From assembly GCA_046563655.1 (NCBI GenBank), contig CM102287.1, positions 2,852,001-2,916,000 of the forward strand: 64,000 bases of DNA. The letters are read 5' to 3'. Numbering within the stretch: position 1 is the first letter of the stretch; each line of letters begins with the position of its first letter. The notes below the pieces were generated by a model. That model made no database searches, had not been told where the DNA came from, and saw nothing but the letters and a program-made list of their open reading frames with translations. Shown here in pieces: positions 13,705 to 61,683 of the stretch. The translations under genes were made by a program, and so were the position numbers. The stretch comes from Yuukianura sp. NJ FZ-2021 (lineage: Eukaryota).

Positions 13705-16700
13705 TTAGTGTAATAAGATCCAAATGTGAAAGGAGAAGGAAATGAAGTGGATGAGTGGGAGAAAGTAACAAGTTCCAAGAAACTTCTTTTCTTTGATCAT
13801 CAAGAGGACAAGAATAGGATCAATTTCATCCACATCGCAAATTTTGTTTGTCCTTTTTCGCAAATTCGCAAAAAAAAAGTTGCAAAAAATTGGCAACAAC
13901 AGTTTACCTGAATCTTGACTAGGTTTTCTTGGAAAAGAAGAAGAAGATAGTCCACTCGAACTTGATTCCTCATCTTCTTCTACCACAATCGAACATGTTT
14001 TCTTCTTCTTCAAAAATTCATTCAAATTTTCCCGCGAATTTCCGGAAAACTCTTTCAAATTTTGGCATGCGTTTCCTGGAAATTCTCCCAAATTTTGATT
14101 TTCCCTCGTCGCAAGCTCATTTTCCAAAAATTTCCGTCTTTCAGCGAACTCTGAATTTTCGACACTTTTGATCTCAGAATTTTCGACATTTTTGTTCTCA
14201 GGATTAAATATCGACATTTTTGCACTGGAAGTGACGAATTCCTGGATTTCAATTTGCGAATCACGGCGCATGCTCGGTGAGAAAAATTGGCTCGATCCTG
14301 ACGAAATACTGGCTTTCCGAGAATCGAAAGTTTTTGACAAAAAATTCCTGTTTTTCCAGGAATTCTGCCGTCGAATTCTCAAAAACTTCCAAAGATGAAT
14401 TCGGATTGTGCGATTGAGGAATCCGTAGAGAATTGGACTCGAAATGGCTCCAACTCCCATAAAAATTTTGAATGAAAAGTAGAACAACATTGGAGTAAAA
14501 GTTGCCGTGAAGAGGGCCAAGGTCAAAGGAAGTTGTGACAAGGTCAATGACCCAATCAGGGTCAAGATCGTCGAAACTGTTTTGCGTGGAGAGTTGTAGT
14601 TGTGTTGCAAAAAAGTCCGCCATTTTCGAATTCCTGAGCGCGTTCCTTGCCTAAGAAGACTTGCAGCCATTTTCGCGCCAATGGCGCGACTTCGCTTGAT
14701 GGTCGAAGTTGACCCCGAGGTCAGCAGGGTCACCGACCTCTGACCCGGGTCAATGTCAGGGTCAACGTAGTTCATGGAAGGTTCCCTGTTGATTGCAATC
14801 CAAAACATTACATTTTAGTTGAGTTCAGGGATGTCAAGAATATTTACTATCCATTCCTGTAATGTTAACAAAAACATATTTGCGGGTTTTCTGTTACTAA
14901 ATATTTATATATTTGTGTATGCATTAATGTTAAAGTTAAAAATCAGTAAATAAATATTTGGGTGATTTTTTAAGAAAAAAATATTTTTTGTCAATATTTC
15001 GTGGGTTTTCAATACATATTTTGATCCCAGCGCTGTGGATACGACGGAACTGTACAATGTGCTTCCGTTTAAATAAAAAGTTTTGCACTTATGAAAATGG
15101 CGGCGAGTCAATTCGAATGCCAATATTTTTAGTTCGTTTTTATCGAAATTTGAATTTTCTGGATTTGTAAAAAGTACCGGCTTTCTGCTTCTGCTCCGGC
15201 TTGTTTTTCAAGATTCGCTAAAAGGACGTACTGAAGCAGCGAATTTTCGGTTTTTTGTGTACCGCCATTGAGAACCGCTTGGCTTGACCTTTGACCTTTG
15301 ACCTGACCTTGGTGACTAGAATAGGCTACAGATGAAGGCCAATCAGAAGAGATGCTCAGAACTGGTGAAGTGAAGTGACCTATTTGGACTTTTTGGCACT
15401 TTTCTTTGGCAATCTGCAAAAATCAGCAAAGTCATTCTCATTATTTCGCCAATCTCTAAACTTTTAAGGCCAAATTTGCGAATTTTGGCAACCCCCGTTT
15501 GCCAAAAATTAAACTCCTCCGCAAAATCACAAGAAGCCTCCATATATTCAAATCTTGCAATTACTAATTACACAATTTCTGATTTCTATAATTACGTAAT
15601 TACTTTCTGTTAAACACGTAATTACTAATTACTTGTTGTTAAATATTGATATTACGCAGTAATTACTCCACTAAATCAAGATTATCTAAAGCTTGTTTTT
15701 CAAAATTGGCCAAAATTTCCGCACTTGTGATACAAATCTGGTTTTTACAGGCCAACGCCCTTCGTTTTTGTTCTGAACACATTTTTTTTTAAATTTCAAG
15801 GGAAAATGGTGATAAATCGTGAGTCAAAGGCCATTAATCTCCTAAACCAAAAGTCAATTAGGCTCAAACGGGAGCTCAAACTTGTTTGGAGCTAATTGCT
15901 GTACTTTATTTTTCTGCTTTTCTGGAGGTGACAAAATTTACTAAAATTATCACACCTTCAAAAGTGGATTTTTCACACCTCACTAAGCCAGTCACTTAAG
16001 TTCAGATTACACTAAACTCCAAATTTTAAAAGTGGAAAATCACCACTCCAAATTGCACAAATTTTAGTCATTGTTTTCATTCCTTGGAAAACCTTGTAAA
16101 CGTTACTTCCGCAATTTTTATCAATGTTTACAAGTAATTATGGCAGATTCAATGCAAAACCTAGCGTGAAATGATACTTTTATAATAAAATGTGATATAT
16201 TTATATAAAATATAATATAATATAAATATGTTTACTTGGAATATGGCATTGTAGCATTTGATCATGACGGAGAGGACGACTGCAGTGACAATGGAGAAGA
16301 CAATGGCAAAGTACAGTCCAAGGGCACCCTTCGGAATGGCAATAGGTCCATGCAAAAACGTTCTGTACAAACAGAAGCATGACCTCAATTGTTTTTTTCA
16401 TAAAATTTAGTCCTTTTTTCAAAAAAGTCAATTTTTCAAAAAATGTTTACAAAGGAAGTTTTTCTTTTCATTAGGTAAGGTGAAAGTGCGGAGAAAGTTC
16501 ATTAACTTCCGACTTGGCGGAGGATAAATGTCATTACAGACAGAAAAAGATTGATTTCGGGAGCAAGCCACCCCCTGAATCACTCTGCGGGGTGGGACTA
16601 TAAAAGACTATAAAAAGACTATAAGTTGGTGACTAAAAAGACTATAGTTGGTGACTAAAAGTGAGACTAAACTTACTCATTTCCAAAGATAAGGAACGGC

Positions 16701-20718: not shown

Positions 20719-22557
20719 ATGTAAGAATTTGACTAGATTTTCGAAATTTTAGAAAAAGTTGATTGGTTTGGATTTGGACTGAAATTTTTTGTTATAGGCT
20801 GCTCCGCCATTTTGTTTTGGCGTATAATCGCTTGAGACGAAGAGTCGTTCGAGAAACGCTCGGAAGTTACCGATGGATCGTCAGACGGAAGGAGATTCCC
20901 TTGTAAATAATCAATTGAACTTGATGAAGATAATCGATTAATTCCAATGACTGTAAATCTTTTAGCTTCGTGTTGGCCAGTGGACTGCTCTCGACGGAAG
21001 CCAAGATGGAAGGCCGAGCAGAAGGATTAGCAAAAACCGTGGAAGCGTTTATGGCTGAACCGTTGACCGGTCGTGACAAGCTGTCCGACACCTCGACTGA
21101 CATGAAGGCTCGAATGGAGTTACTTATTATGAGGATCCAGGTTAGTAATCAATCGTTAATCAATTCCTGGACTACTACTTTAATCAATTAGTTGATGCTG
21201 AAGCGTAATTTACTAAACGTTTTGAAACGTTTCTACTCAGAAACAAGTCTGCCAGGCTCTGGAGGCTGAAGAGACCGAATTTGACGTCAAGTTCGTAACA
21301 GATCGTTGGACTCGCGAAGAAGGCGGTGGTGGAATCACTTGTATCATTCAAGATGGCCATGTCTTTGAGAAGGCGGGCGTCAACGTATCAGTTGTCCACG
21401 GTGTACTGCCACCAGCAGCAGTTGCTCAAATGAGATCCAGGTAACGTTAGCCGCCATTTTCAAAATTTTTTACTTACATCCTGGATTCTGAATCCAGGAC
21501 TTCAAGTTTTCCAACCATTTTTTCAGAGGAAAAGACTTGGAAGGAGAATCACTTCCGTTCTACGCCCTTGGAATCAGTTCAGTAATTCACCCTAGGAATC
21601 CATACGTCCCTACTATTCACTTCAACTACAGATACTTTGAAGTGGAGACTTCTAAGGGTACACAATGGTGGTTCGGTGGTGGAACTGACCTCACTCCGTA
21701 CTATCTCAACGACCAAGATGTTGTCCACTTCCACAGTCAGCTGAAGAAGGCTTGTGATAAGCACGATAGTTCCTATTATCCAAAGTTCAAGAAATGGTGT
21801 GACAATTACTTCAGAATTCCACATCGCGGTAAGAAAACTTCAAACATAATTGTAGATTTCAAAGATTTCCAAAAAAAAATGTGCAATTCGCAACTTTTCC
21901 TTTGGTTTTAAGATTTGTTTAGATTTGTAAGACAATTTTGTTTTGTTTTAGATGAATCCAGAGGCGTTGGTGGAATCTTTTTTGACGACATGGATTACCC
22001 TAACAGAGAAAAAGCATTTCAGTTTGTCACTTCCTGTGCAGAAGCTGTGATACCTTCNNNNNNNNNNNNNNNNNNNNNNNNNNNNNNNNNNNNNNNNNNN
22101 NNNNNNNNNNNNNNNNNNNNNNNNNNNNNNNNNNNNNNNNNNNNNNNNNNNNNNNNNCTTCTTATCTACCCCTAGGTAAACACTAACTTTTTTGAGATTT
22201 TTCAAAATTTCGAAACTTCTTTTTGAATTTTCAGTGAAAAAGCACAAGAATGATGGTTATGGTTACAAGGAGCGACAGTGGCAACTTTTACGACGTGGCC
22301 GCTACGTGGAGTTCAATTTGGTCTACGACCGCGGCACAAAGTTTGGACTCTACACGCCCGGAGCTCGTTACGAAAGTATTCTAATGTCGCTTCCACTAAC
22401 TGCTGTAAGACGATTTTCAAAAAACATCAAAATTTCGAAAAATTTCATTTTTTTTTTTCAATTTTTGCAGAAGTGGGAGTACATGAATGTCCCAACGGAA
22501 GGAAGCCAAGAGTACAAAATTACGCAGATTTTGAAAAACCCGAAAGAGTGGGTCTAA
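20719..22557 (+). CDS. CPOX: Oxygen-dependent coproporphyrinogen-III oxidase, mitochondrial
   Basis: Hallmark motifs [68 protein letters not shown] and [20 protein letters not shown]. Arg-rich presequence [19 protein letters not shown]. Confidence 0.97.
22058..22157. other. Assembly gap (100 N), probably a false gap
   Basis: The flanks overlap by CTTC. Merging them restores the CPOX peptide AVIPSYLPLVKKH. Confidence 0.85.
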
Positions 22558-24896: not shown

Positions 24897-27778
24897 ATGA
24901 AGTACGGCGTTGTTGGAGAAGACATGGACGAAAGAATGTCAGAAGCTGAGAACTCTACGACCGTTTTGGAAGGTGAGAATTTCAAAAAATTCCTTTTTTT
25001 AAGTTTCCAAATTTTGAAATTTGTTTTGGTTTTAGTACGTGAGAAAAGGAAAGCTGACGTGCTTGATGCTGCAGATGTCGACATGTGGATGTCCACTAAA
25101 GTTGTTCATGACAACTACGTCTTGCACTGGAACATCGGCGACATTCGGAATGTCGCCACTCACCATTCCATCAAATCACCACTTTTCAGAGCAGGGTACC
25201 ACTTCCAGCACATTTGGGAAGCCGAGGTCACTCCAAATGAAATCCAAGGTCAAATGTACCTTGGGGTCAAGGTCAAACTGATTGCTTTTCAGCATTGGGA
25301 GGACGAATCAGCAATGGACGCTGGAAGACAACTGAAAGTGTCGCTGGACGTGTCCATTGTAGACAAACAAGAAAAAGTGTGTCACGGACTGCATGGGTTA
25401 GAAAAAATTTCACAATTTCGAACATTTCAAAATTTTAAGGTCAAGGACAAAGGTCAATTTTCAAAAAAATTTTGATTTTGACTTAGGACTAAGTACGTCA
25501 ACAAAGGCGGGAGTGTTGGATGGCCGGAGTTTCTGAAGGTCGATGACCTTGACACCGTTGTGCAGCAGAACGGCGACCTTCGACTGCTGGTCAGCATCAC
25601 AATTGAACTGGACACGCACATCCAAGGTCAAGAGGTCACGCAAGGTCATCCACCTCTATTCAAGAAAACATGCATCCGCCAATGTCTGAACAGTCATGAA
25701 GGTCACGAGGTCAATGACCCCGGAAAGGTCAATGACCCCGGAACTAAGCTTTCTGCTCCAAAAGAAGACTCTCCGCATTTTCGAGCTCCGAATTTGAAAA
25801 ACTACTTTTGGAAACTGGGCGACGAAGAGCCAGATTTTGAAATCCGGAGTCAGAGCAAAACGAATCTGCACGTTCACAAGTCAATGTTGCTCAGAAAGAG
25901 CGGTTTTTTGCAAAAATATTTGGAACAAGACGGAATGCGATCTGGTGGTTATCTTTGTAACACCCAAATCCTCAAAATCATTCTGGACTTCATGTACACT
26001 GGAAAAATCGCTGAAGATGTTCTAACACAACACGCTAAAAAGATTTTTGAATACTGCCACCATTATATAGTTCCAGAACTCCAAGTTTTGGCTGAAGAAG
26101 TGCTGCTGAAAAGCGTCTGTGCTGAAAATGCTGTCGATTTGTGGTACATTAGACATCATAGCGACAAACTGGAGCCAAAAATCCTTGAAATTTTTAAGCA
26201 AAATCCACACAAATTTGAGCCTTTTTACCAAGAAAGGTTCAACGAAGAGCTGAAACGGAGAGGTCAAGAGGTCGTTGACCTCACCGTGACCTCCGATGAC
26301 GACATTTCAGCGCCACCGTGGTACGAAGACGACAGCGGTGTCGTTTGGAAACACGGTGACGAGGAACCAGATTTTGAAATCATCACGTGGGAAACTACCA
26401 AAAAGAGTTTCAAAGTGCACAAATCCGTTTTGGCTTCAAAAAATACTTTTTTCAAAAAACATTTCGAAAACGGTCCAGCACATCAACAAGACTCAATTGA
26501 ATTTGAACCAGGTCATCCTCCAGCAGCATTGAAAATGATACTGGATTTCATCTACACTGGAAGAATCGATGAAGCAGCGATTCGGAACAACGCTGCACTC
26601 ATTTTCAGTTTTGGAGATCGCTGGGAAGTACCGGAACTCAAAAACTTGGCAGAAGAGTTTCTGCTGGATACCGTTTCGGCCGAAACGGTACCCGAACTTT
26701 GGTGGGAGGCTGAATGCGGAAACGGTACGAAACTGATGGCCAAAATTACCGAGTTCGTCCAGCTTCATCCGGATGAATTTTGTCCAGAAGATTTGGATTG
26801 GTTGAAACGCAAGTTAAATCTCGGCGGTGACGAGTTCAATGATTGGCCAGTGTTCCAGGTAATATGATCAAAAGCAATTTGGTCAAAAAGTGAAAAGGTC
26901 AAAAAGGGAGATCAAACATAAGAAAAAATATAAACAAGCCTAGCCTATTAATAGTAATCGTTGCCATTTTCAGTTTGTGACTTTTTCACTTTTTGATCAA
27001 ATAAGTGTTTGACCTTTTCTTTTTTTAATAAAATAATTTTGAGCGTTTCACTTTTTAATGAAATAATTTTGACCTTGTCACTTTTTGATCATATAATTTT
27101 GACCTTTTCAGTTTTTGATCAAATAGTTTTGACCTTTTCACTTTTTGATTTTTTCACTTTCTGACCTTTTCAATTTTCGACCTTTTCACTTTTTGATCAA
27201 ATAATTTTGACCATTTGACCTTCTAGGATTGGCCACTGGGTGACGAACCACCGGATTACGAAATCGTCACTCTCAAAGGAAAACAAAAATTTCTGGTGCA
27301 CAAGTCCGTTTTGGCACAAAAGAGCGTCTATTTCAAAAAGAATTTTGAAAATGGTCCATTTTCTCATCAGAAGAGACACACACGAAACGTATCTCCGGAA
27401 ACCATCAGAGCAGCGCTGGATTTCATGTACACTGGAACAATCGCTGGAAATTTCCTGGAGAGTGGACATGAAAATGTTGAAGAGTTGTTTGAATTGGCTG
27501 AAGACTGGAAGTGGGGAATTCCTGAACTGCGGATTTTGGCAGAAGAGGCGATGGTCAAGTACGTCTGTGCAGAAACCGTGTTCAAATGGTGGTTCAAGTG
27601 GAGACCAAATGCACCAACACTCAAAGCAAAAGTTTGTGAGTATGCGCAGCAGCATCCAGAACAATTTGCCATTGGGTGTCAAAAGTACTTCGGAGATATT
27701 CGGCAGCAGGAGCAACAGTACTGCGTCGGTCCAGAGGTAAAGCCCCCTGGTGAAGGAAATGGAAATCAAAACGCCTAA
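24897..27778 (+). CDS. MATH-BTB-BTB-BTB protein, SPOP-like Cullin-3 adaptor family (array gene 2)
   Basis: Four exons. MATH (LHWNIGDIR, IKSPLF, YLGVKV, GWPEFL, NGDLRL) followed by three PDF/YEI...VHKS.L...LDF.YTG BTB units. The last unit follows intron 26859-27226. Confidence 0.85.
26850..27226. mobile_element. TIR element forming a spliceosomal intron (copies also at about 30126-30483 and 35430-35751)
   Basis: Flanked by the direct repeat GATTGGCCA (26841-26849 and 27227-27235). Imperfect terminal inverted repeats. Internal tandem unit of about 30 bp, TTTTGACCTTTTCACTTTTTGATCAAATAA. Confidence 0.7.
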
Positions 27779-28079
27779 CATTTTGAAATTCTAAAAAAAT
27801 CCAAAAATTTCAAAAACTTTAGCACAATTTCCAAGTTTAAAAAGAAAGTGCTCAAAAAGTGTCAATTTATCGTGAAAATAAAAAAAAATCATTGAAAAAA
27901 AAATCCATTCATTTTTTAAAACTGTTTTATTGACAACAGTTTCATGGACATTTGAAATTTGTTTTCATTTTTTCAAACAATTTCGAAAATTTCGAAAATT
28001 TTGGTCAGTTTGTTGGTCAGAAACTGTCGTAGCAGCAACTTTTTTTTCTCATTTGGGAATTACGAGGTCAAAGGTCAAC

Positions 28080-31047
28080 ATGAAGTTCGGCGCTGTCGAA
28101 GACGAATTGCAAGAAAGAATGTCAAAAAGCGAGGAGTTGACGACCGTTTTGGAAGGTGAGAATTTCAAAAAACTTTTTTTAAGTTTCGAAATTTTGAAAT
28201 TTGATTTTGGTTTTAGGAGGAAAGCGGAAAGCTGATGTCCTTGATGCTGCCAATGTTGATGCTTGGATGTCCACTGAAGTTGTTCGTGACAACTATGTGT
28301 TGCACTGGAACATCAAGGACATTCGGAATGTCGCCAGTCACGACACCATCAAATCACCACTTTTCAGAGCTGGGCGACACTTCCAGCACATTTGGCAAGC
28401 AGAGGTCACTCCAACGGAAATCCAAGGTCAACAGTACTTAGGGGTCACCGTGGCACTGGTTGCCTTTGGCAACGAATCAGCGCTGGACGCTGGACGACAA
28501 CTGAAAGTATCTCTGGACGTGTCCATTGTGAATAAAGAAGAACAAGTTTGTCATGGACAACATGGGTTAGAGAAAAATTTCAACATTTTCAAAAAAGGTC
28601 AAGGTCAAAGATCATTTTCAAAAAAAAATGTTTTGATTTTTGAAAATTTAGGACTGATTTCATTGGGAAAGGGGGAAATCTCGGATGGCAGCATTTCCTG
28701 AAAGTGGATGACCTTGACCCCGTCCTTCAGCAGAACGGTGACCTTCGACTGCTGATTGGCATCACAATCGAAATGGACACGCAAATCCAAGGTCAAGGTC
28801 ACGAGGTCACGCAAGGTCAACAACATCCGTCCAAGAAAACATGCATCCGCCAATGTCTGAATCGTCAGGAAGGTCACGAGGTCAGTGACCCTGGAAAGGT
28901 CAATGACCTCGGAAAGGTCAATGACCCCAGAACTAACATTTCTGCTCCAGAAGAAGACTCTGCGCATTTCCGGACACCGAATTTGAAAAGCTGCATTTGG
29001 AAACTTGGCGAACAAGAGCCAGATTTTGAAATTCGAAGTCAAAGCAGAACGAAATTGCTTGTGCACAAGTCAATGTTGGCCAAAAAGAGCGGTTTTTTGC
29101 AAAAATACTTTGAACAAGGAGGTCGAGACGGAGTAATGTCTGGTAGTTATCTTTCTAATACCGAAATACTCAAAATCATTCTGGACTTCATCTACACTGG
29201 AAAAATCGCTGAAAGCGTTCTATCACAACATGCTAAAAAGATTTTTGAGTACTGCCACCATTATGTTGTTCCAGAACTTCAAGTTTTGGCTGAAGAAATG
29301 CTGCTGAAGAGCGTCTGTGCTGAAAATGCTGACGATTTGTGGCGTATCCAGGGAAGTGACAAATTGGAGACAAAAATTCTTGAAATTTTTAGGCAGAATC
29401 CACAAAAATTTGAACCTTTTTACCAAGAAATGTTCAGCAATGAGCTGAAACGGAGAGGTCAAGAGGTCGATGACCACAGCGACTCTTGTTCCTCCGTCAA
29501 TGACGACTCTTCTATCTCTGATGACGACTCTTCCTTTCATGACGACTCGTCTTCCGTCGATGAAGACGACATTCCAGCGCCACCGTCGTACGAAACTGAC
29601 AACGGATTTGTGTGGGAACACGGTGACGAGGAGCCGGATTTTGAAATCATCACGTCGGAAATTACCAAAACGAGTTTCAAAGTTCACAAATCCGTTTTGG
29701 CTTCAAAAAATGCTTTTTTCAAAAAACTTTTCGAAAATGGTCCAGCACATCAGCAAGACTCAATCGATTTCGAACCAGGTCATCCTCCAGCAGTAATGAA
29801 AACTATACTGGATTTTATCTACACTGGAAAAATTGACGAAGCAGCAATTCGGAACAACGCTGCATTCATGCTTTATTTTGGCCATGACTTGGAAATACCG
29901 GAACTCAAAAACTTGGCAGAAGAGTTTCTTGCGGATACCATTTCGGCCGAAGCCGAAACGATATTCTATCTTTGGTGGGACGCTGAATGCCACGACGGTA
30001 AGAAACTGATGGCCAAAATTACCGAGTTCGTTCAGCTTCATCCGGACGAATTTTGTCCAGAAGATTTGGATTGGTTGAGACGCAAGTTAAATCTGGACGG
30101 TGCTGACGAGTTCAATGATTGGCCAGTGTTCCAGGTAATATGATCAAAAGCAATTTGGTCAAAAAGTGAAAAGGTCAAAAAATGAGATCAAACATAAGAA
30201 AACGCTAAACAAACATAGCCAATTAATTGTAATGGATGCCATTTTCAGTTTTTGACCTTTTCACTTTTTGATCAAATAAGTGTTTGACCTTTTCTTTTTT
30301 TAATGAAATAATTTTGACCTTTTCAATTTTTAATAAAATAATTTTGAGCGTTTCACTTTTTAATGAAATAATTTTGACCTTGTCACTTTTTGATCATATA
30401 ATTTTTACGTTTTCAGTTCTTGATCAGATAATTTTGACCTTTTCACTTTTTGATCAAATAATTTTGACCATTTAACTTGCTAGGATTGGACACTGGGTGA
30501 CGAACCACCGGATTACGAAATCGTCACTTTGAAAGGAAAACAGAAATTTCTGGTGCACAAGTCCGTTTTGGCACAAAAGAGCGCCTTTTTCAAAAAGAAT
30601 TTCGAAAATGGTCCATTTTCTCATCAGAAGAGAGACGTTCGCAACGTATCTCCAGAAACACTCAGAGCAGCGCTTGATTTCATGTACACTGGAACAATCG
30701 CTGAAAGTTTTCTGGAAAGTGGACATGAAAATGTTGAAGAGTTGTTTGAATTGGCGGAAGACTGGAAGTGGGGAATTCCGGAACTACGGAATGTGGCTGA
30801 AGAGGCGATGCTGAACTACGTCTGTGCAGAAACAGTGTTCAAATGGTGGTTCAAGTGGTGGAGAGATCAGGCGCCAAAATTGAAATCAAAAGTTTGTGAG
30901 TATGCGCAGCAGCATCCAGACCAATTTGTCATTGGGTGTCAAAAGTACTTCGGAGATATTCGGCAGCAGGAACAGCTCGCATCGAACAGCGTCGGTCCAG
31001 AAGTGGAGCTCCCGGCTGGTGACCAAAACGGAAATCCAACAGCCTAA
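28080..31047 (+). CDS. MATH-BTB-BTB-BTB protein (array gene 3)
   Basis: Same exon structure as gene 2, with a Ser/Asp repeat linker between BTB1 and BTB2. The third BTB follows intron 30135-30483. Confidence 0.85.
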
Positions 31048-31588
31048 CATTTTGAAATTCTAAAAACTACTAAAAAAACTAAAAAAAAAGCACTAAAAAT
31101 TTCAAAAACTTAACATTTCAAAGAAGTGTCAATTAAGTGTGTTATAACAATAATAAAAAGTAAACAATAATAAATACAGCGAGCAGCGTCGGTCCAGAAG
31201 TGGAGCCCCCTGGTGAAGGAAATGGAAATCAAAACGCCTAACATTTTGAAATTCTAAAGAAAATCCAAAAATTTCAAAAACTTTAGCACAATTTCCAAGT
31301 TTAAAAAGAAAGTGTTCCAAAAAGTGTCAATTTATCGTAAAAATAATTTAAAAAAAAATCATTTATAAAAAAAATCGCTTCGTTGTAACATTCATTTTTT
31401 AAAACTTTGTCTATTGACAACAGTTGCTCGGAAATTTCAAATCTGTTTTCATTTTTTCAAACAAAATTTTGAAAATTTTATTTGGTTAGAAACTGTCGTG
31501 TAGCAGCAACATTCTTTTTCATTTAGAAATTTCTAGGTCAAAGCTCAACATAAGGTTCGGGGCTGTCGAACACGATTTGGACGAAAGA

Positions 31589-32951
31589 ATGTCAGAAAGC
31601 GGGGAGTTGACGACCGTTTTGGAAGGTGAGAATTTCAAAAAACTTTTTTCCAAATTTTGAAATTTGATTTTGGTTTTAGGAGGGAAGTGGAAAGCCAGTG
31701 TGCTTGATGCTGCCAATGTGGATGCTTGGATGTCGACTAAGGTTGTTCGTGACAACTATGTCTTGCACTGGAACATCAGCGACATTCGGAATGTCGCCAG
31801 TCACCATGCCATCCAGTCACCACTTTTCAGAGCAGGGCGACACTTCCAGCACATTTGGCAAGCCAACGTGACAATCCAGGAAATCCAAGGCCAAATGTAC
31901 TTAGGTGTCACCGTGGAACTGGTTGCCTTTGGCAACGAGTCAGCGCTGGACGCTGGACGACAACTTAAGGTGTCCCTGGACGTATCCATTGTGGACAAGG
32001 AAGAAACAGTGCGTAATGGCCTCCATGGGTTAGAAAACATTTCAAAATTTTGAGGTCAAGGTCAAAAGTCATTTTCAAATTTTTTTTTTCTCGAAATTTA
32101 GGACCGATTTCATTGGCGAAGGGGGAAATCTCGGATGGCAGAAGTTTTTGGAAGTGAATGACCTTGACCCCGTTCTTCAGCAGAACGGTGACCTTAGGCT
32201 CCTGATTGGCATCACAATTGAAATGGACACGCACATTCAAGGTCAAGGTCAAGAGGTCACCAAGGTCACGGAAGGTCAATCACCACCATTCAAGGAAGCT
32301 TGCACCCCTTGGCTGATGTCTCCGCAAGGTCGCGAGGTCAATGACCCCGGAAAGGTCAATCACCTCGGAACTAAGCTTTCTGCTCCGAAAGAAGACTCTC
32401 CGCATTTCCGGGCTTCGAATTTGAAAAACTACTTTTGGAAACTGGGAGACGAAGAGCCAGATTTTGAAATCCGAAGTCACAGCAAAACGAATCTGCACGT
32501 TCACAAGTCAATGTTGGCTAAAAAGAGCGGTTTGCTACAAAAATACGTCGAAGAAGGAAGAATGTCTTGTCATTATCGTTGTAACACCCAAATCTTCAAA
32601 ATCATTTTGGACTTCATCTACACTGGAGAAATCGCTGAAGATGTTCTGCAGCAACACGCTAAAAAGCTTTTTGAATACTGCCACCATTATGTAGTTCCAG
32701 AACTTTATGTTTTGGCTGAAGAAGTGCTCCTGAAGAGCGTCTGCGCTGAAAATGCAGATGATTTTTGGTTCATCCAGGGACGCAATGACAAACTGGAGAC
32801 GAAAATTCTCGAAATTTTTAAACAGAATCCGCAAAAATTTATTCCTTGTCGACAAGAAATGTTCAACAATGAACTGAAACGGAGAGGTCAAGAGGTCGTT
32901 GACCTCAAAAATTTCACTGAAGACATTTCAGCGCCACCGTCGTACTCGTAA
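31589..32951 (+). CDS. MATH-BTB protein, truncated paralog or possible pseudogene (array gene 4)
   Basis: The paralogous ATG is ATA at 31550, with an in-frame ATG at 31589. One BTB, then a jump directly into the 3'-end sequence (ACCAAAACGGAAATCAAACCGCC), which implies deletion of BTB2 and BTB3. Confidence 0.65.
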
Positions 32952-33385
32952 CCAAAACGGAAATCAAACCGCCTTAACATTTTGCAATTCTAAAAAAAAG
33001 AATTAAAAATTTGAGAAAAGTAAAACATTTAAAAAAAGTGCTAATTTATCATAAGATTAATGAAAAATAAACTAAAACTTTCCTTTTTCAATTTTACGTT
33101 CGCAGTACATACCGGTTTTTCAAATTTTTCAACCTAACCTGCTTATGGCAGGTGAATGTTTTAGGCAATATTTCAAAATAAACTAAAAGTTTTGAGGAAA
33201 AAAAAAACTAATTTTCAAAAATTGTTTCCTAGGCTATGGTTTTTTGAACAATTGAAAATTGTTTTCACTTTAAAATTTCGTGCCTATTTTTGTCAGTTGC
33301 TCAGGAACATCTTATTTCGTACGAGCAAGATCTTTCCTGTATTTTGCATTTGCATTTTATGTAATTTTAAAGGTCAAAGGTCAAC

Positions 33386-36297
33386 ATGAGATACGGAGTG
33401 AGCGATACCGAGTTGGATCAAGGAACGGCAGAAACCGACGAATTTCCGACAGTTCTGGAAGGTGAATCCGAATTTCAAAAAAAAAACTTTTTTAGTTTCG
33501 AAATTTTGAAATTTGATTTTGGTTTTAGGCGGGAAGAGGAAAGCTGATGTGCTTGATGCTGCCAATGTTGATGTTTGGATGTCCACAAAAGTTGTTCGTG
33601 ACCACTACGTCTTGAACTGGAATATCAGCGACATTCGGAATGTCGCCAGTCACGACGCCATCAAATCACCACTTTTCAGAGCAGGGCGACACTTCCAGCA
33701 CATTTGGGAAGCCGAGGTCACTCCAACGGAAATCCAAGGTCAAATGTTTCTTGGGGTCAAGGTCAAACTGATTGCTTTTCAGCATTGGGAGAACCAATCA
33801 GCGATTGACGCTGGACGACAATTGAAGGTGGCCCTGGACGTGTCCATTGTGGACAAACAAGAAAAAGTGTGTCATAGACTCCACGGGTTAGAAACAATTC
33901 AAAATTTCAACAATTTCAAAATTTTAAGGTCAAGGTCAAAGGTCATTTTTTCAAAAACGTTGGTTTTTTGAAATTTTAGAACTGACTATGTTGACCAAGG
34001 TGGAACTGTTGGATGGCCGGAGTTTCTGAAGGTCGATGACCTTGACTCCATTGTACAGAAAAACGGTGACCTGCGACTCCTGATTGGCATCACAATTGAA
34101 ATGGACACGCACATTCAAGGTCAAGGTCAAGAGGTCACCAAGGTCACGCAAGGTCATCCACCACCATTCAAGAAAACATGCATCCGCCAATGTCTGAACA
34201 GTCATGAAGGTCACGAGGTCAATGACCTCGGAAAGGTCAAAATGACCCCGGAAAGGTCAATGACCCCAGAACTAACGTTTCTGCTAAAAAAGAAGACTCT
34301 CCGCATTTCCGGACTCCGAATTCGAAAAACTACATTTGGAAACTGGGCGACGAAGAGCCAGATTTTGAAATCCGGAGTCACAGCAAACAGAATTTGCACG
34401 TTCACAAGTCAATGTTGGCCAAAAAGAGCGGTTTTTTGCAAAAATACTTTGAACGCCGAGGGCAAGACGGAATACTGTCTGGTAGTTATCGTTTTAACAC
34501 CCAAATCCTCAAAATCATTCTGGACTTCATCTACACTGGAAAAATCGCTGAAAACGTTCTACAACAACACGCAAAAAAGCTTTTTGAATACTGCGACCAT
34601 TATGTAGTTCCAGAACTTTATGTTTTGGCTGAAGAAGAGCTGCTGAAAAGCGTGTGCGCTGAAAATGCAGATGATTTGTGGTTCATCCAGGGACGCAGTA
34701 ACAAACTGGAGACGAAAATTCTTGAAATTTTCCAGCAGAATCCACAAAAATTTCATTCTTTTCAACAAGAAATGTTCAACGATGAGCTAAAACGGAGAGG
34801 TCAAGAGGTCATTGACCTCAAAAATTTAACTGGCGACCGACTCTTCCTTCGATGACGGCTCGTCTTCCGTCGATGACGACGACATTTCAGCGCCACCGTC
34901 GTACGAAAATGACAGCGGCGCTGTGTGGAAACACGGTGACGAGGAGCCAGATTTTGAAATCATCACGTGGGAAACTACCAAAAAGAGTTTCAAAGTTCAC
35001 AAATCCGTTTTGGCTTCAAAAAATACTTTTTTCAAAAAACATTTCGAAAATGGTCCAGAACATCAACAAGACTCAATTGAATTTGAAGAAGGTTATCCTC
35101 CAGCAGCGGTGAAGATTACACTGGATTTCATCTACACTGGAAAAATTGACGAATCAGCGATTCGGAACAACGCTGCAGATATGTTCAATTTTGGAGATCG
35201 CTGGGAAGTACCGGAACTCAAAAACTTGGCAGAAGAATTTCTTCTGGATACCGTTTCGGCCGAAACGATATTCGACCTTTGGTGGGAAGCTGAATGCGGG
35301 AACGGTACGAAACTGATGGCCAAAATTACCGAATTCGTCCAGCTTCATCCGGACGAATTTTGTCCAGAAGATTTGGACTGGTTGAGACGCAAGTTAAATC
35401 TGGACGGTGATGAGTTCAATGATTGGCCACTGTTTCAGGTAATATGATCAAAAGCAATTTGGTCAAAAAGTGAAAAGGTCAAAAAGTGAGATCAAAACCT
35501 ATATCAAACAAACCTAAGCTACTTATTGTTACGGTTGCCAGTATCCCTTGCTAACCTTTCCACTTTTTGGTCTTTCTACTTTTTGACCTTTCACTTTTTG
35601 ATCAAATAATCTTAACCTTTGCACTTTTTGAGTAGATAATTTTTACCTTTTCACTTTTTGATTAAATATTTTTGACCATTTCACTTTTCGATCAAATAAT
35701 TTTGACCCTTTCACTTTTTGATCCAATAATTTTGACCATTTGTCCTGCTAGGATTGGCCACTGGGTGACGAACCACCGGATTACGAAATCGTCACTTTCA
35801 AAGGAAAACAGAAATTTCTGGTGCACAAGTCCGTTTTGGAACAAAAGAGCGCCTACTTCAAAAAGAATTTTGAAAATGGTCCATTTTCTCATCAGAAGAG
35901 AGACACGCGCAACGTTACCCCAGAAACACTGAGAGCAGCGCTGGATTTCATGTACACTGGAACAATCGCTGGAAATTTCCTGGAAAGTGGACATGAAAAT
36001 GTTGAAGAATTGTTTGAACTTGTGGATGACTGGAACTGGAACATTCCTGAACTGCGGAATGTGGCAGAAGAGGCGATGCTGAACTACGTCTGTGCAGAAA
36101 CAGTGTTCAAATGGTGGTTCAAGTGGTGGAGAGATCAGGCGCCAAAATTGAAATCAAAAGTTTGTGAGTATGCACAGCAGCATCCAGACCAATTTGCCAT
36201 TGGTTGTCAAAAGTACTTCGAAGATAGACGACAGCAGCAGTACGGCGTGAGTCCGGAAGTGGACGAAAATCAAAACGACTCCAATCAAACAGCCTAA
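33386..36297 (+). pseudogene. Frameshifted MATH-BTBx3 paralog (array gene 5)
   Basis: A +2 insertion at about 34240 (GGTCAAAATGACC vs GGTCAATGACC) leads to a stop at 34605-34607. A +1 insertion sits at about 34837. All domains are otherwise intact. The indels could be assembly errors. Confidence 0.65.
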
Positions 36298-36623
36298 CAT
36301 TTTGAAAAAAAAAAATTTCTAAAAAAAAAGTCAAAATATTTAAAAACTTACTACAATTTAGAAGTTTAAAAAAATGTCAACTTATCATAAGAATAACGAA
36401 AAATAAATCAAACTTTTTTTTTGAATTTTCTTCGTAGTAGGTTTTTTTCTGAACTGTTTCCTTGACAACGGTTTTTTGAACAAATTGAAGTTTGTTTTCA
36501 CTTTTTCAAACAAGATTTCGAAAAGTATGTGCAAATTTCTTGTTTTTGATCAGGTCGGTCGTCAGAAACTGTCGTAGCAGCAACATTCTTTTTCATTTTG
36601 GAATTTCGAGGTCAAAGGTCAAC

Positions 36624-38477
36624 ATGAAGTTCGGCGTTGTCGAAAACGATTTGGAGCAAGGAACATCTGAACCTGACGACTTATCGGCAGTTTCGGAAGG
36701 TGACCTTGAATTTCATAAAAAAAAACTTTCAAGTTTCGAAATTTTGAAATTTGATTTTGGTTTTAGGAGGGAAGCGGAAAGCCAGTGTGCTTGATGCTGC
36801 CAATGTGGATGTTTGGATGTCGACTGAGGTTGTTCGTGACAACTATGTAATGCACTGGAACATCAACGACATCCGGAATGTCAAAGGTCACGGCGCCATC
36901 AAATCACCACTCTTCAGAGCAGGGTACCACTGCCAGCACATTTGGCAGCTCAAGGTCACTCCAAAGGAAATCCAAGGTCACAGTTACCTGGGGGTCAAGG
37001 TCATACTCGTCGCTTTTGCCAACGAATCAGCGATGGACGATGGGCGTCAACTGAAGGTGTCCTTGGACGTGTCCATTGTTGACAAAGAGGAAAAAGTTTG
37101 TCACGGACTCCAAGGGTTAGAAAAAATTTCAAAATTTCAAGAATTTCAAAACTTTAAGGTCAAGGTCAAAGGTCATTTTTCAAAAAACTTTGATTTTGAT
37201 TTAGAACTGACTATGTCAACAAAGGCGGGAGTGTTGGATGGCCGGAGTTTCTGAAAGTGAATGACCTTGACTCCGTCGTACAGGAAAACGGCGACCTTCG
37301 ACTGCTGGTTGGAATCACAATTGAAATGGACACGCACATTCAAGGTCAAGGTCAAGAGGTCACCAAGGTCACTCAAGGTCAACAACCTCCGTCCAAGAAA
37401 AGTTGTGTCCGCGACATTTCAAAAGGTCACGAGGTCAATGACCTTGAAAAATCCAAAGCATCTGACACTGCTGACATTTGGAAACGGGGTGACGAGGAGC
37501 CAGATTTTGAACTCATCATGAAAGATGATGACGACAACGAGCGACGTTTCAAAGTTCACAAATCGGTTTTGGCGGGAAACAGTTTTTTCAAAAAACACTT
37601 CGAATCAGGTCCAGCCGACGAGCAAGCATCCATGTGCTTGGCAAGTATCCATCCAGTAGGAATGAAAGTCATACTGGAATTTCTGTACTACGGAGAACTC
37701 GATGAGCATCTAATTCGTGTCAACCCGGAGCACTTTTTTGAATGGGGGGCAGTACTGGAAGTTCCAGAAATCAAGGAAATCGCTGAAAATGTGCTGGCGG
37801 ACAGCATTTCCGCTGAAAATGTACTTGATCTTTACTTCAGCGCTGACGACTACCATGGATCCAAACTACTGGACAAAGTGATTGACTTTGTGAAAAATCA
37901 TGCTGATCAATTGTCACCCTACGATCGACATGTGTTGGAAGATGAGTTGCGTCTTGGAAAACATCACGAGGTCACTGACCTCGTGACCTTTGACTACTTG
38001 GACCAACCCACAGACTACGAAATTGTTTCTTGGAATGTCAAATTCCTCGTTCACAAGCACATTTTGGCGGAAAAGAGCAATTTTTTCAAAAAAAAGTTTG
38101 AAGTTGGAAAACTGTCGGAACAGAAGACACTGGACGCACGTTCGGCAGGCCGAGACGCAATCAAGGCCGCTCTTCAGTTCATGTACACTGGAAGTGTGAC
38201 GCTGGAAGAGCTGGAGAAATGCTGGAAGTATCCTATGCATGTATTTCGACTTGCAGAGCTCTGGGAACTGGAGGAATTCAAAAATCGTTTCGAAGAATCG
38301 CTTCTTCAGGATTACATCTGTGCAGAGAACGTGTATTACTGCTACTCTGCGCTGGGCTATCATGCGCCGAAGTTGGGAGCGCGAGCTGCCGAGTATGCGC
38401 AGCAGCATCCAGAACAATTTACAACTGCTGTGCTCAACTACTCTGATTACCTTCGCCAAACCAATTTTCTAACCTAA
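36624..38477 (+). CDS. MATH-BTB-BTB protein (array gene 6)
   Basis: MATH exons as in genes 2-5. Two BTB units (PDFELI...FKVHKSVLA...LEFLYYG and TDYEIV...FLVHKHILA...LQFMYTG) lie in one uninterrupted exon. Confidence 0.85.
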
Positions 38478-39257: not shown

Positions 39258-40651
39258 ATGAAACACGACGGCGGCAGCAGCGGTGAAGATCTGAATCATG
39301 GAATGTCGACGATTTTGGAAAGTAAGTTTGAATTTGAAATTTAAACTAATTTTTGAAAGTTTTTTTTTGGTTTTCCAACTTTGAAATTTCAATTTTGGTT
39401 GCAGGAAGTGGAGTAAAACGGGACTCCAGTGAATTGGACCAGCCTTCGGTCGCTGACGATTTGGTGTCACCGGAATCCGTTGAAGGTCAAGGTCAAGGTC
39501 AACCTCCGCCATCCAAGAAAAGTCGTGTCAGCGATGACACTGAAGAGGTCAATGACCCCGAGAGGTCAAGTTCAGTTGACTCTGAAGATCCGGCAAGTGA
39601 CAACGACGACTACATTTGGAAAGTTGGAGATGAAACTCCAGATTTCGAAATTGTGACCACCGAAGACCGAATTTTGAAAGTACAAAAGTCGATCCTGGCA
39701 GAGCGAAGTACTTTTTTCAAAAATCATTTTGAATCAGGACCGGCAGATCAACAAGATCAAGTTCGTTTTGATGGAATCCATCCACAAGCGATGAAAATCA
39801 TTTTGGATTTTATCTATTTTGGAAAAATCAGCCATGAAGAAGCGATTCGCCGAAATGCAGAGTTGATGTTCAAGTATGCCCACCGATTTGAAGTACAGGA
39901 GCTCAAAAATTTCGCTGAAAATGTGCTGGTGGACAGCGTAACGGCCGAAAATGCGCTGGAACTTTACCGAATCGCTGAAAGCTGCGAAGGAGCTCGATTG
40001 TTGGCAAAAGTGTCTGATTTTTTCAAGAATCATGCTGATGATATGTCTCCAGAAGAAAGAGAAGTTCTGGAATATGAGATGGAAATTGCAGATGAAGAGG
40101 CGTCGCGTGACCTCGTGAACTTCGAACACTCAAGTGGACCGCCAGATTTCGAAATTTTGTCTTGGAGTTCCAAATTTTTGGTGCATCAAGCAGTTTTGAC
40201 ACAGAAGAGCGAATACTTCAAACATTATGTCACGTTGCCTGGTGCACAGTCACTGCGCACGTTCGGAACACCTTCGGAAATAATCAAGCCCGTGCTGGAC
40301 TACTTGTACTCCGGAGAGGTCAAGCAAGATGACCTTGAAAAGTTGGGGTCAAATCCGGACGAAGTGTTTCGTCTTGTGGACTCTTGGGAACTGCAGGAAT
40401 TTAAGGATCTGTTTGAACAGTCGCTGATCAACCGCGTCTGCGCAGAATCAGTTTTCAAACTTTGGTGGGTCGCAAGATGCAACGATGCACAGAAGTTGAA
40501 GGCAAAAGCAGAGGACTTCGCAGCACAAAATCCAGCAGCATTTTCTATTGGTTGTCAAAAATACTTCGATGACAAGCGGAAAACTCTCAACCCAGAAGTT
40601 GCTAAAGATGGTGACAACAACAATCAAAATGAATCAAACTCAGACGTCTAA
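39258..40651 (+). CDS. BTB-BTB protein without a MATH domain (array gene 7)
   Basis: Homologous short exon 1 (MKHDGG...STILE). Exon 2 runs from the KR-containing N-terminus straight to the QGQGQPPPSKK linker and then two BTB units. Confidence 0.8.
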
Positions 40652-41249
40652 AAATTTCAAAATTTCAAACATTTCAACAAACCATTTTCAAACATTTTTT
40701 AAAACTTTTTTCAAAAATTTAAAACACTTTTCAAACCTAATTAACCCAGACGTACTTCTTTGTTGTAAACACAATTCTATTTTGATTTCGAAAAACAAAT
40801 TTTGAAACTTTACAAAAAATTTTCTCAAAATAAAACAATGAAAAGAGTTGACCTTTGACATCTGACCTTTTGATATAATCAAGTCACTGCTTCTATTTTT
40901 ACGCTAATTGCCAGTTTTCTTTTCAACAGGAAATTTCCTGTTGTTTCCAGCTAAAAACTTTGACCTCATTTTCCATAATTTCCATAATTCTTTTTTGTTT
41001 TGGCGGCCTTTCCAGTGTCATCATCACCTTGAGTAAACTTTTTATCAAAAACCTAACGTAAACCTAGCCTAACCAACCTGATTAGGTTATTCTAACCTCG
41101 TTTTAGGTTTTCCAGAAAACTCATTTTCATAAAATATGGTTTCCTTCACTCTCACAAATTATGAAAATTATGAAATCTGAAGGGTATAAAACTACTTTTA
41201 CCTTCACATAGATTCCTGGAGCTCCAAAAATTCTCCAAAACTTCCAGAA

Positions 41250-43102
41250 ATGAAGTTTTTCGTAAGTTGCGCAGTCGTTTTAGGAGTTCTAAGCTTTGCA
41301 CATGCGCGTCGCTGGAAAGGGCCCAATGACAAGGCTTACGGCTCTGTTTTAGAGTCTCCGAGTGTGACGAACTGGGGCACCCCGGGGCAATTCGAACTCT
41401 GTCCAACAGGAAAAGTAGTCAAAGGTTTCACTCTAAAAGTGGAACCACGACGCAGGCGTATTGACAACACGGCCCTGAATGGAATTGCATTTTTGTGTGG
41501 CGCGCCTACGGCGCAACTTCCTGATAACCCTCAGTATATTGCCAGTAAAGAGGGAATGTTTGGCCAATGGGGGCCACTGAGCAACTGCAGTGCCGGCTCC
41601 TATGCAGTTGGATTTCAACTGATGTCGCAAGAGCCTCAAGGGCCATTTGGAGATGACGTGGCAGCGGTAAATTTGAAATTGATTTGCGCCGATGGCGCGG
41701 AATTGGAAGGATATGCTGAGGATGAGGAATATCCAGACAGTTACTACACTGAGGCTCAGTTGTGTCGTCCTGGAAGGGCGATTTGTGGACTCCAGACACA
41801 AGTAGAAGAGTATCAGCGATTGAGTATGTAAAGCGTGAGAAAATTTAAAAAAAGTTTAAAATCAATTTGAACGTTTGATTTTCTTAGCCGATTTTGAAAA
41901 TTGTGATTTTTTTGGTGTAAAAAGGTGACGATACGGCCCTGAACAACTTGAGAGCTTACTGCTGCAACGTTCTCAAGGCTCGACCAACTTTGGTTCCTTC
42001 TACAGAGCAGACGCAGACTGAAGCAGAGGTGACCACACCTACTGCGCAGGTCACAAGCACTTCAGCATCACTTCCGAGTGAAATTGTGACTGAGAATCAG
42101 GAAACGTCCAGTGCGTCTGTGCAAGAAAGTACTGTTGCAACAGAAGGAATTCCTGAAAATGTAGTCGGCTCTTCTACTCAAAGCACTGCTGAATCCACTC
42201 CTGTAACTGAAGCTAGCGTCCCAGTTGAGCCAATTCCAACAGAATCCGTTGCATCAACAGAATCAGTTACAACAGAACCAGTTGCATCAACAGAGGCAGT
42301 TGCAACAGAATCAGTTACAACAGAACCAGTTGCATCAACAGAAGCAGTTGCAACAGAATCAGTTACAGCAGAACCAGTTGCATCAACAGAAGCAGTTGCA
42401 ACGGAATCAGTTACAGCAGAACCAGTTGCATCAACAGAAGCAGTTGCAACAGACTCAGTTGCAACAGAATCAGTTACAGCAGAACCAGTTGCATCAACAG
42501 AAGCAGTTGCAACAGAATCAGTTCCAACAGAACCAGTTGCATCAACAGAAGCAGTTGCAACAGAATCAGTTCCAACAGAACCAGTTGCATCAACAGAAGC
42601 AGTTGCAACAGAATCAGTTCCAACAGAACCAGTTGCATCAACAGAAGCAGTTGCAACAGAATCAGTTCCAACAGAACCAGTTGCATCAACAGAAGCAGTT
42701 GCAACAGAATCAGTTCCAACAGAACCAGTTGCATCAACAGAAACAGTTGCGACAGAATCAGTTACAGCAGAATCCGTTGCCTCAACAGAAGTATCTTCAT
42801 CAACAGAAGTAGTTGTAACAGAATCAGTTGCATCAACAGAAATAAATTCAGCGACAGAACCCATTAGTCCTGCAGAAGTAGTTGTGTCAACAGAAGCAGA
42901 ATCTGCAACAGAAGCAATTTCATCAACGGAACAAGTTGCTCCAACAGACACAAGTTCAGGTCCTGAAGCCATTACTAGCTCAACGGAATCAAGCTCAGCT
43001 CCTGAAGCGATCGCTTCCACAGAACAGACTGCTCCAACAGAAAGTACTGCGACAGAACCAATTGCATCAACAGAAAAGAAACAGAAGCGATTAACTAATT
43101 GA
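41250..43102 (+). CDS. VMO1: Vitelline membrane outer layer protein 1-like (VOMI domain) with a mucin-like T/S/E/A repeat tail
   Basis: Signal peptide. VOMI motifs TNWGTPG, GFTLKVE, DNTALNGIAFLC, DDVAAVNLKLIC, AICGLQTQVE and DDTALNNLRAYCC. Intron 41824-41924. Tail of 15-aa TEPVASTEAVATESV repeats. Confidence 0.85.
42235..42845 (+). repeat. Coding tandem repeat with a 45-bp unit made of 15-bp subunits
   Basis: Unit ACAGAACCAGTTGCATCAACAGAAGCAGTTGCAACAGAATCAGTTCCA-type, roughly 12 copies. Confidence 0.9.
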
Positions 43103-60800: not shown

Positions 60801-61683
60801 ACCAAATGCTCCTCCTGTCTCTTCTAAAACTGTAATTAACTAATCAACCAATTCTGTCTGTCATCTAATAGGTAGTTAAAACTTCAACAACTTTTTGTAA
60901 CGTTATTCACCAAATTAAGGTAGTTTTAGCTATAAGAGTCTCGGATAACTGAATTGTGAACGTAAATGTCTAGAAAGTTAAGTCTTAATTTATTTTTTGT
61001 TGCCAATTGTTAGCGGATAGTTTAATCTTTAGTTGAGATTGAGAAAGCATGTGCATTGTGTTAATTTTTAATTGCTAGACAGGATCATTTAGCCTAAAAA
61101 TTATGCCAATGCTTTTTAAAGTGGAGGTCAAAGGTCAAGTCATGGAAAGCAAAAAACTGGAAGCTCCAAAATAAGTACAATAATTTAGAAGAAAATTCGT
61201 TTGTAAAGGCATTGTTGTTCACACCTTTCTTGTGGAAATGGTTTAGAACTAGGCATAAGCAAAGCTATTAAGTATTAAGAACTGTGAAGTTTTTTGTTTA
61301 GTTGAATGTTAATTATATTATAATTAACTTACGTGAAGTATGATTGACGTTAGCTTAATTAAAAGTTAGCTTAATTAATACGCCAGAAGAAACAAGATGT
61401 CAAACTGAGAACTGAGACGAAACTTTTCACGTAACTTTTTTCCTTTGGATTTTTGAACGGCGTTCTCATGTTTCAATTTTTTTTTCACTTCCACTTTTAT
61501 CTCAGTTTGCGATCAGCTGTGTGTAGCAGTATTGTCGGTCTGCCTGTCCAGTGTCTTCTGTCACGGTTGACATTGCTAAAATTTGTGTTCCCTCACCTCT
61601 GACCTTTCAGTTACTACTCTCAAGAGGACTCAGGTCACTGATAAGAAGTAAGAACAGGAGCACACGCAAGCCGAGCGGCGAAA

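Follow-up and report, generated by a model that had tools for sequence, protein, structure and literature searches.

Inserted DNA has been described as a source of new introns in several systems. Introners are families in which many similar introns occur at unrelated sites; in Aureococcus they carry both splice sites and add four element bases and eight duplicated bases to the mRNA, and the available part of the survey by Gozashti et al. 2022 records them in only two animal groups, of which copepods are the one named (PMC9860276). Single transposon insertions have also turned into introns, for example Doc in Drosophila sechellia, with further cases in maize, rice and Oikopleura (PMC3296678). 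In Daphnia, neointrons are accompanied by 33 direct repeats of 4-12 bp, which have been attributed to staggered breaks (PMC4202315). The locus considered here is an intron between the second and third BTB units of gene 2, in a tandem MATH-BTB cluster of Yuukianura sp. NJ FZ-2021; it lies in a 64,000-nucleotide stretch of contig CM102287.1 (positions 2,852,001 to 2,916,000; hereafter "the window"). That this intron was created by an insertion of one kind or another, leaving an in-frame scar of six residues, is well supported, and the inserting agent was likely a transposon resembling a foldback element or a miniature inverted-repeat transposable element (MITE). As a whole, the account in which a single foldback/MITE-like insertion created the intron is the best explanation and a probable one.

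What is the evidence that the intron arose by insertion? First, it is bracketed by a direct repeat (Table 1). The nine-base sequence GATTGGCCA stands a short distance before the donor and again immediately after the acceptor, such that the upstream exon finishes ...DEFNDWPVFQ and the downstream exon opens with DWPLGDEPPDYEI. The mRNA gains 18 nt in frame, consisting of one repeat copy plus the nine bases GTGTTCCAG, and the protein gains the six residues DWPVFQ. Reading on into the intron would give V-I-stop, with a TGA in frame at the third intron codon. In gene 5 the repeat is longer, 12 bases (GATTGGCCACTG) that are exact on both sides, while the right copy in gene 3 (GATTGGACA) matches GATTGGCCA at 8/9 positions; the length of the duplication can therefore be read as 9 exact bases in gene 2, 8/9 in gene 3 and 12 exact in gene 5. 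The original prediction had described the flanking repeat, its 12-bp form in gene 5, its appearance in the protein as DWPVFQ followed by DWP, and an inserted segment that provides both GT and AG; each of these can be read directly from the bases and the exon ends. Second, a repeat in this position is improbable by chance. When 9-mers starting at the base after an acceptor were required to recur no more than 20 nt upstream of the donor, first-order Markov simulated sequence gave 485/2,328,370 such cases (2.1e-4), and 18/2,328,370 for 12-mers (7.7e-6). When the null was drawn from the window after masking of the three loci, 9-mers gave 273/97,221, above the Markov null; the excess is assumed to be due to tandem arrays. 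GATTGGCCA is also found at 50556, 52698 and 53374, in unrelated contexts. Third, genes 2, 3 and 5 have the intron at the same codon, and the three copies can be aligned over their full length (85.6% over 395 between the gene 3 and gene 2 structures by blastn). The three introns therefore represent one event, as had been proposed, and not three independent observations.

Table 1. Features of the MATH-BTB cluster and of the window, in window coordinates.
Feature	Position	Strand	Details
Tandem MATH-BTB cluster	~24.9-40.7 kb	+	
Gene 2 upstream exon	25487..26858	+	End of MATH, BTB1, BTB2, linker; preceding intron ends 25486
Left direct-repeat copy	26841..26849	+	GATTGGCCA, codons D-W-P, exonic
Bases from left repeat copy to donor	26850..26858	+	Nine bases GTGTTCCAG (V-F-Q), insert-derived, now exon
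Left inverted-repeat arm	26857..26905	+	Inverted copy of ~1.5 30-base units; contains AG/GT donor
Gene 2 intron	26859..27226	+	GTAATA...TTCTAG, 368 nt, phase 0; GT 26859-60, AG 27225-26
30-base unit array	26978..27177	+	Consensus TTTTGACCTTTTCACTTTTTGATCAAATAA, 6.5 copies; unit = two ~15-base half-units
Right inverted-repeat arm	27174..27221	+	Last ~1.5 units; then TCTAG carrying acceptor
Right direct-repeat copy	27227..27235	+	GATTGGCCA, first three codons of BTB3 exon
Gene 2 downstream exon	27227..27778	+	BTB3 to stop codon; BTB match E 3e-14
Gene 3 counterpart	30117..30492	+	Repeat 30117-25; intron 30135-30483, 349 nt; right copy 30484-92
Gene 5 counterpart	35421..35763	+	Repeat 35421-32 and 35752-63; intron 35439-35751, 313 nt
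Gene 6 BTBa-BTBb linker	37947..38024	+	No intron; uninterrupted, one open reading frame
Gene 7 BTBa-BTBb linker	40079..40156	+	No intron; uninterrupted, one open reading frame
Examples of the motif before BTB units			FWKLGDEEPDFEI, VWKHGDEEPDFEI, IWKRGDEEPDFEL, IWKVGDETPDFEI
AGGTCAATGACCCCGGAA repeat sites	25708-25743, 28879-28932, 32335-32370, 34216-34271		
AAGGTCAA/AGGTCA sites, e.g.	28064-28083, 33370-33388, 36608-36627, 61124-61144		
AAGGTCAA/AGGTCA sites, e.g.	3939-3960, 10444-10465, 15284-15298	-	
Window gene content			Coproporphyrinogen oxidase, VOMI, C2H2 zinc-finger protein, DDI-type aspartyl protease, galactosyltransferase, SLC12/amino-acid-permease exons

The locus resembles the Aureococcus Introner in that the intron is an inserted element with a flanking duplication and with both splice sites inside the insert. 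The in-frame gain is likewise composite, with 4 + 8 = 12 nt there and 9 + 9 (or 6 + 12) = 18 nt here. However, in the 64 kb of the window one event is visible, unlike the large Introner families, and the host is an animal; the insertion is also old, the paralogs having reached a synonymous divergence (dS) of 0.2-0.3. The label Introner-like, as first suggested, would call for a family of many copies forming introns at unrelated sites. As with Doc and the examples from maize, rice and Oikopleura, a lone insertion whose target-site duplication falls at the ends of the intron, or close to them, suffices for a spliced intron; those elements were matched to known families.

The insertion reading presupposes an intron that is spliced. 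The BTB3 (B3) exon stays open in each of genes 2, 3 and 5, its ratio of nonsynonymous to synonymous divergence (dN/dS) is 0.32-0.36 at a dS of 0.26-0.33, and no Met occurs in it upstream of residue 66. Hence, the exon is most simply read as a translated portion of the upstream gene, which in turn implies that the intron is removed. GT, AG and phase are preserved in 3/3 copies. Nine other delimited introns all (9/9) begin GTGA or GTTA and finish in TAG, so CTAG is a normal acceptor here; the other introns of the MATH-BTB genes measure 54-93 nt. From these signs of constraint we infer that the introns of genes 2, 3 and 5 are spliced. Alternatively, the segment could remain unspliced, with the gene ending V-I-stop after BTB2 and BTB3 either dead or separate, or it could be an assembly artefact. 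Decay does occur within the cluster, given the frameshift in the B1-B2 linker of gene 5 and the truncation of gene 4 after BTB1. Set against this are three copies that have kept their splice sites and phase, and an open, constrained BTB3 exon with no start codon of its own over its first 65 residues. The three copies differ by substitutions and in unit number, unlike what a collapsed assembly would be expected to show. There is only a very slight chance that the segment is unspliced or artefactual.

The insert itself resembles a Foldback-type element in architecture. Its two ends (26857-26905 against 27221-27174) are complementary at 41/49 positions (83.7%; E 2e-8 by blastn), as expected from the inverted-repeat ends proposed originally, and a repeat search returned an inner arm pair of 29 nt at 93% (26877-26905 / 27174-27202). 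These inverted ends are composite, made of tandem sub-repeats. The array of 30-base units makes up the right two thirds of the insert, its copy number (period 30) being 6.5, 7.6 and 5.4 in genes 2, 3 and 5, respectively. Subterminal tandem repeats of about 30 bp had been proposed for the element, and the 3' side bears this out, whereas the 5' end holds only about 1.5 inverted units. The boundaries of the element and of the intron nearly coincide: the arms span 26857-27221 and the intron 26859-27226, leaving only 2 + 5 intron bases outside the arms, with GT within the left arm and AG just past the right arm, ahead of the right repeat copy. The left repeat copy is separated from the left arm by GTGTTCC (7 nt, or 6 if the arm begins at C26856), and the right arm from the right repeat copy by TCTAG (5 nt, or 4). 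Inverted ends that bound an insert, together with a duplication of 9-12 bases, are the signature of cut-and-paste transposition.

The closest structural parallel is Tm1, a Mutator/Foldback element of root-knot nematodes. Short tandem repeats, variable in number, make up its inverted ends; inside the duplication, its termini bear asymmetric motifs of 7 bases. Its duplications are 8-10 bases and mostly 9, and some of its members are MITE-like, being non-coding and of MITE size (PMC3169594). The insert described here shares with Tm1 tandem-repeat arms whose repeat number differs between the two ends, and short asymmetric end motifs between arms and duplication; its duplication would also fall in the Tm1 range if it is 9 bases long. 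It departs from Tm1 in its unit of 30 bases (two halves of ~15 bases) as against 13-15, in arms that are very unequal (~1.5 units versus 5-8) and in a duplication that may be 12 bases long. The likeness is one of structure; no transposase domain was found in the window translations scanned, and the window contains no second copy. FB of Drosophila is a further Foldback-type element. A Mutator-like assignment, as originally suggested, would follow only from a 9-base duplication, and in gene 5 the duplication is 12 bases.

There is also a difference in how the parts of the insert have evolved. The first 50 intron bases, which cover the left arm, are 98%-100% identical across the three paralogs, while the intron interior is 34%-92% identical and other introns are 61%-92% identical. 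Conservation of the arm could reflect selection, for example for a stem or for donor context. Folding of the intron RNA gives -82.2 kcal/mol, versus -64.1 +/- 4.2 for shuffled sequences (z -4.35), and 0/100 shuffles are as stable; the ends are paired in the fold, and each of the three paralogs is predicted to form the terminal stem.

Was the intron gained, or was it lost from genes 6 and 7? Genes 2, 3 and 5 have three BTB units each (B1, B2, B3), genes 6 and 7 have two each, and gene 4 ends after B1. In a tree of 14 BTB units, the later of the two units in genes 6/7 falls with B3 (98/98) and the earlier with B2 (90/87), with B1 apart (100/100). By this tree, the B2-B3 linker has its true equivalent in the stretch between the two units of genes 6 and 7, a stretch that both genes read through in one open reading frame, as had been claimed. 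A paralog tree was also expected to polarise gain versus loss; it fails to do so, with one change needed either way. The polarity instead comes from the duplication itself. When the insert and one repeat copy are deleted in silico, the joined sequence reads ...DEFNDWPLGDEPPDYEI, which fits the motif W-x-x-G-D-E-x-P-D-[FY]-E-[IL]. This motif precedes 9/11 other BTB units of the cluster; only the second unit in gene 6 and that in gene 7 lack it. The fit of the restored motif favours gain. The linker, measured by eye from H[PA]D to PD[FY]EI, is 39 residues in gene 2 (33 minus the six) and 37 in genes 6/7, which is not decisive.

A different history would have an old intron in which an element landed later, with subsequent loss of the intron from genes 6/7 and a separate origin for the DWP...DWP repeat. 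The tree permits one loss as easily as one gain, and an inverted repeat at 5324-6428 apparently lies within an intron, a possible example of such a landing. That repeat is large, with two arms of 494 nt that are 99% complementary and separated by 117 nt. A GTAAGT at 5298 precedes it and a TTTAG whose last base is 6463 follows it, which would make the stretch a candidate intron; TCTAAAATTT is found in both residual flanks. If 5298-6463 is an intron, 26 + 35 non-repeat bases remain, about one normal intron. In contrast, the gene 2 insert leaves only 2 + 5 bases outside its arms, far short of the 54-93 nt of the family's introns, so no older intron is hidden there. Furthermore, the duplication brackets exactly the intron plus nine bases, which is improbable by chance, and the B1-B2 linker of these genes is also intronless. 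A later landing in an older intron is highly unlikely. Insertion into coding sequence, with a duplication visible in both DNA and protein, is the better reading, and the gain that was originally proposed is supported in this respect.

How might the insertion have produced a working intron? A short non-coding element with inverted ends of ~30-base units would have inserted once between BTB2 and BTB3, in the coding linker of an ancestral MATH-BTBx3 gene, and would have duplicated 9-12 target bases (GATTGGCCA, with or without a following CTG). Transposition is the process that we infer for this step. The left end of the element, CAG/GTAATA, would have served as the donor, and the T-rich right end, ...TTTTGACCATTTGACCTTCTAG, would give branch-like TTGAC sites, a pyrimidine tract and the acceptor. 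Since the element ends supply both donor and acceptor, the whole insert minus its first 6-9 bases would be spliced out. The mRNA would retain the extra repeat copy and the first insert bases, 18 nt in all, seen as DWPVFQ in the linker. The arms could pair in the pre-mRNA, joining donor and acceptor, and this pairing may aid recognition of an intron 4-6 times the usual length, a putative role for the stem. The intron would then have reached genes 2, 3 and 5 by tandem duplication or by conversion among them. Gain before these genes duplicated, as first proposed, is still the simplest reading, but the paralogs are mosaics, with B2 closest between genes 2/5, the intron interior between genes 2/3 and the B3 end between genes 3/5, and this pattern permits spread by gene conversion.

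Several observations weigh against a transposon-made, spliced intron with a functional stem. The support for splicing is indirect, coming from sequence constraint. Base pairs in the stem are either invariant or, occasionally, broken, with no compensatory changes, and hence there is no covariation evidence for it. Gene conversion is an equally good cause of arm conservation, given the mosaic paralogs and the frameshift in gene 5, a gene whose arm is nevertheless unchanged. The array is partly secondary, because the number of units varies from 5.4 to 7.6 among the paralogs. Unmatched bases, 6-7 on the left and 4-5 on the right, separate the duplication from the arms; with a single event to judge from, this leaves the element ends and the length of the duplication (9 or 12) uncertain. 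Within the 64-kb window, blastn of the insert matched only the three homologous introns, and 14/14 matches to the repeat unit also fall inside them; dispersed copies are thus missing from a tiny sample that carries little weight. A transposase domain was not found in the 37 open reading frame translations scanned, out of 62 open reading frames of at least 130 aa. AAGGTCAA, which is contained in the repeat unit, occurs 86 times in the window versus 4.7 expected, an 18-fold over-representation, so the insert may be built from genome-common sequence and not from a discrete mobile family; 34/86 sites lie outside the gene cluster. Lastly, protein searches gave no relative usable as an outgroup for comparison with an empty site. 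Word-index protein searches with the 459-aa exon gave no matches, HMMER with the two-BTB region of gene 7 gave 860 proteins at E<=0.001 of which the best is only ~29% identical, and the motif W..G[DE]..[PT]D[FY] is in none of the best 40 of 150 listed HMMER matches.

Some of these points bear on the main rival, staggered double-strand-break repair, in which overhangs of 9-12 bases were filled in and filler DNA was captured with no transposase. The captured DNA could be part of an element, or else a repeat able to form a hairpin. A duplication that does not abut the arms, the lack of any other copy of the insert in the window and the richness of the insert in AAGGTCAA (common throughout the window) all count in favour of repair, and the 4-12 bp repeats of Daphnia span the 9-12 base range seen here (PMC4202315). 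Moreover, the exon-end sequence recurs at the opposite intron end just as in the Daphnia neointrons, and young Daphnia introns have short internal repeats, although the recurrence at the exon end does not separate repair from a transposon. The difference lies in the terminal inverted repeats, which span the intron here; the term "inverted repeat" appears 0 times in the available part of PMC4202315. Inverted arms of 49 bases that bound the insert almost end to end match the appearance of a complete cut-and-paste element and would not be expected if random filler had been captured. Foldback-type elements, Tm1 among them, have documented asymmetric end motifs lying between the duplication and the arms, so the unmatched bases do not disqualify a transposon (PMC3169594). 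Break repair is thus unlikely, though a serious contender, and a foldback/MITE-like element is favoured as the inserting agent.

What would this origin mean? First, the locus shows how an insertion into an exon can be tolerated: the insert has its own splice sites, the six-residue scar falls in a flexible linker, and the ends are able to meet. Second, an insert, a duplication and a protein change that are legible together are uncommon in animals. It is doubtful that the insert belongs to a dispersed, intron-generating foldback family, in an invertebrate animal lineage from which no such family has been described, whose paired arms are kept because they allow a 300-370 nt insert to be spliced where introns measure 54-93 nt, and whose AAGGTCA units are akin to the AGGTCA direct repeats beside start codons across the window. 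Were there a genome-wide family of such introns, the organism would serve usefully as an animal model of intron gain driven by transposons; otherwise, the locus is a tidy single example. At present it looks like a single case of an already known route to intron gain.

The AAGGTCAA word has further associations. It is often tandem, as AGGTCA-A-AGGTCA, and is present in every unit of the intron element; this arrangement resembles a DR1 nuclear-receptor site. AGGTCA followed by ATG within 0-6 bases occurs 34 times versus 3.5 expected, and this set includes the putative starts of genes 2, 3, 5 and 6 (ATG at 24897, 28080, 33386 and 36624). AGGTCA may be a promoter or 5'-end motif specific to this lineage. 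The word is also contained in an 18-base coding repeat, AGGTCAATGACCCCGGAA (K/E-V-N-D-P-G), of which genes 2-5 carry 2-3 copies in their MATH-BTB linker. A second foldback-like unit is located at 2496-2700, with inverted arms of 44-46 nt that are 87%-89% complementary and 15-base sub-repeats (GAATTACTGCGAAAC); its flanks match at 5/9 positions by eye with no clear duplication, and it is no guide to duplication length. In Rfam, three families of plant microRNA hairpins matched weakly; their scores of 21-31 bits fell below the gathering scores of 71-211, and the matches were rejected as meaningless.

Other members of the cluster show various forms of alteration. In gene 5, the reading frame changes at 34815-34860, in the acidic/serine-rich B1-B2 linker, where ...KNLTGDRLFLR-stop resumes in the +1 frame as DSSFDDGSSS...; no GT...AG pair able to remove the shift was seen by eye, and gene 5 is either a pseudogene or carries a one-base sequence error. 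Gene 4 (31548-32951) is a truncated paralog with MATH and BTB1 followed by a stop (...DISAPPSYS-stop), and it has ATA at the aligned start-codon position. Gene 6 (36625-38477) is mosaic in structure: the MATH half and introns 1-2 closely resemble those of genes 2-5 (intron 1 is 75%-87% identical), whereas its BTB half has ~30%-47% identity to the gene 2 BTB region by tblastn. This suggests recombination or conversion inside the cluster.

The window is eukaryotic, with a G+C content of ~39%, and the host is an invertebrate animal. The coproporphyrinogen oxidase exon has 65%-79% identity to springtail, insect, cladoceran and bivalve proteins, and in a 22-row tree it forms a long, unplaced branch; an assembly gap of 100 N lies within this gene (22058-22157). 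Just downstream of the VOMI-domain gene (41190-41831), a long open reading frame (41921-43102) encodes a repetitive protein rich in Thr, Ser, Glu and Val, and includes a 48-base tandem repeat of 12.6 copies at 42234-42841.

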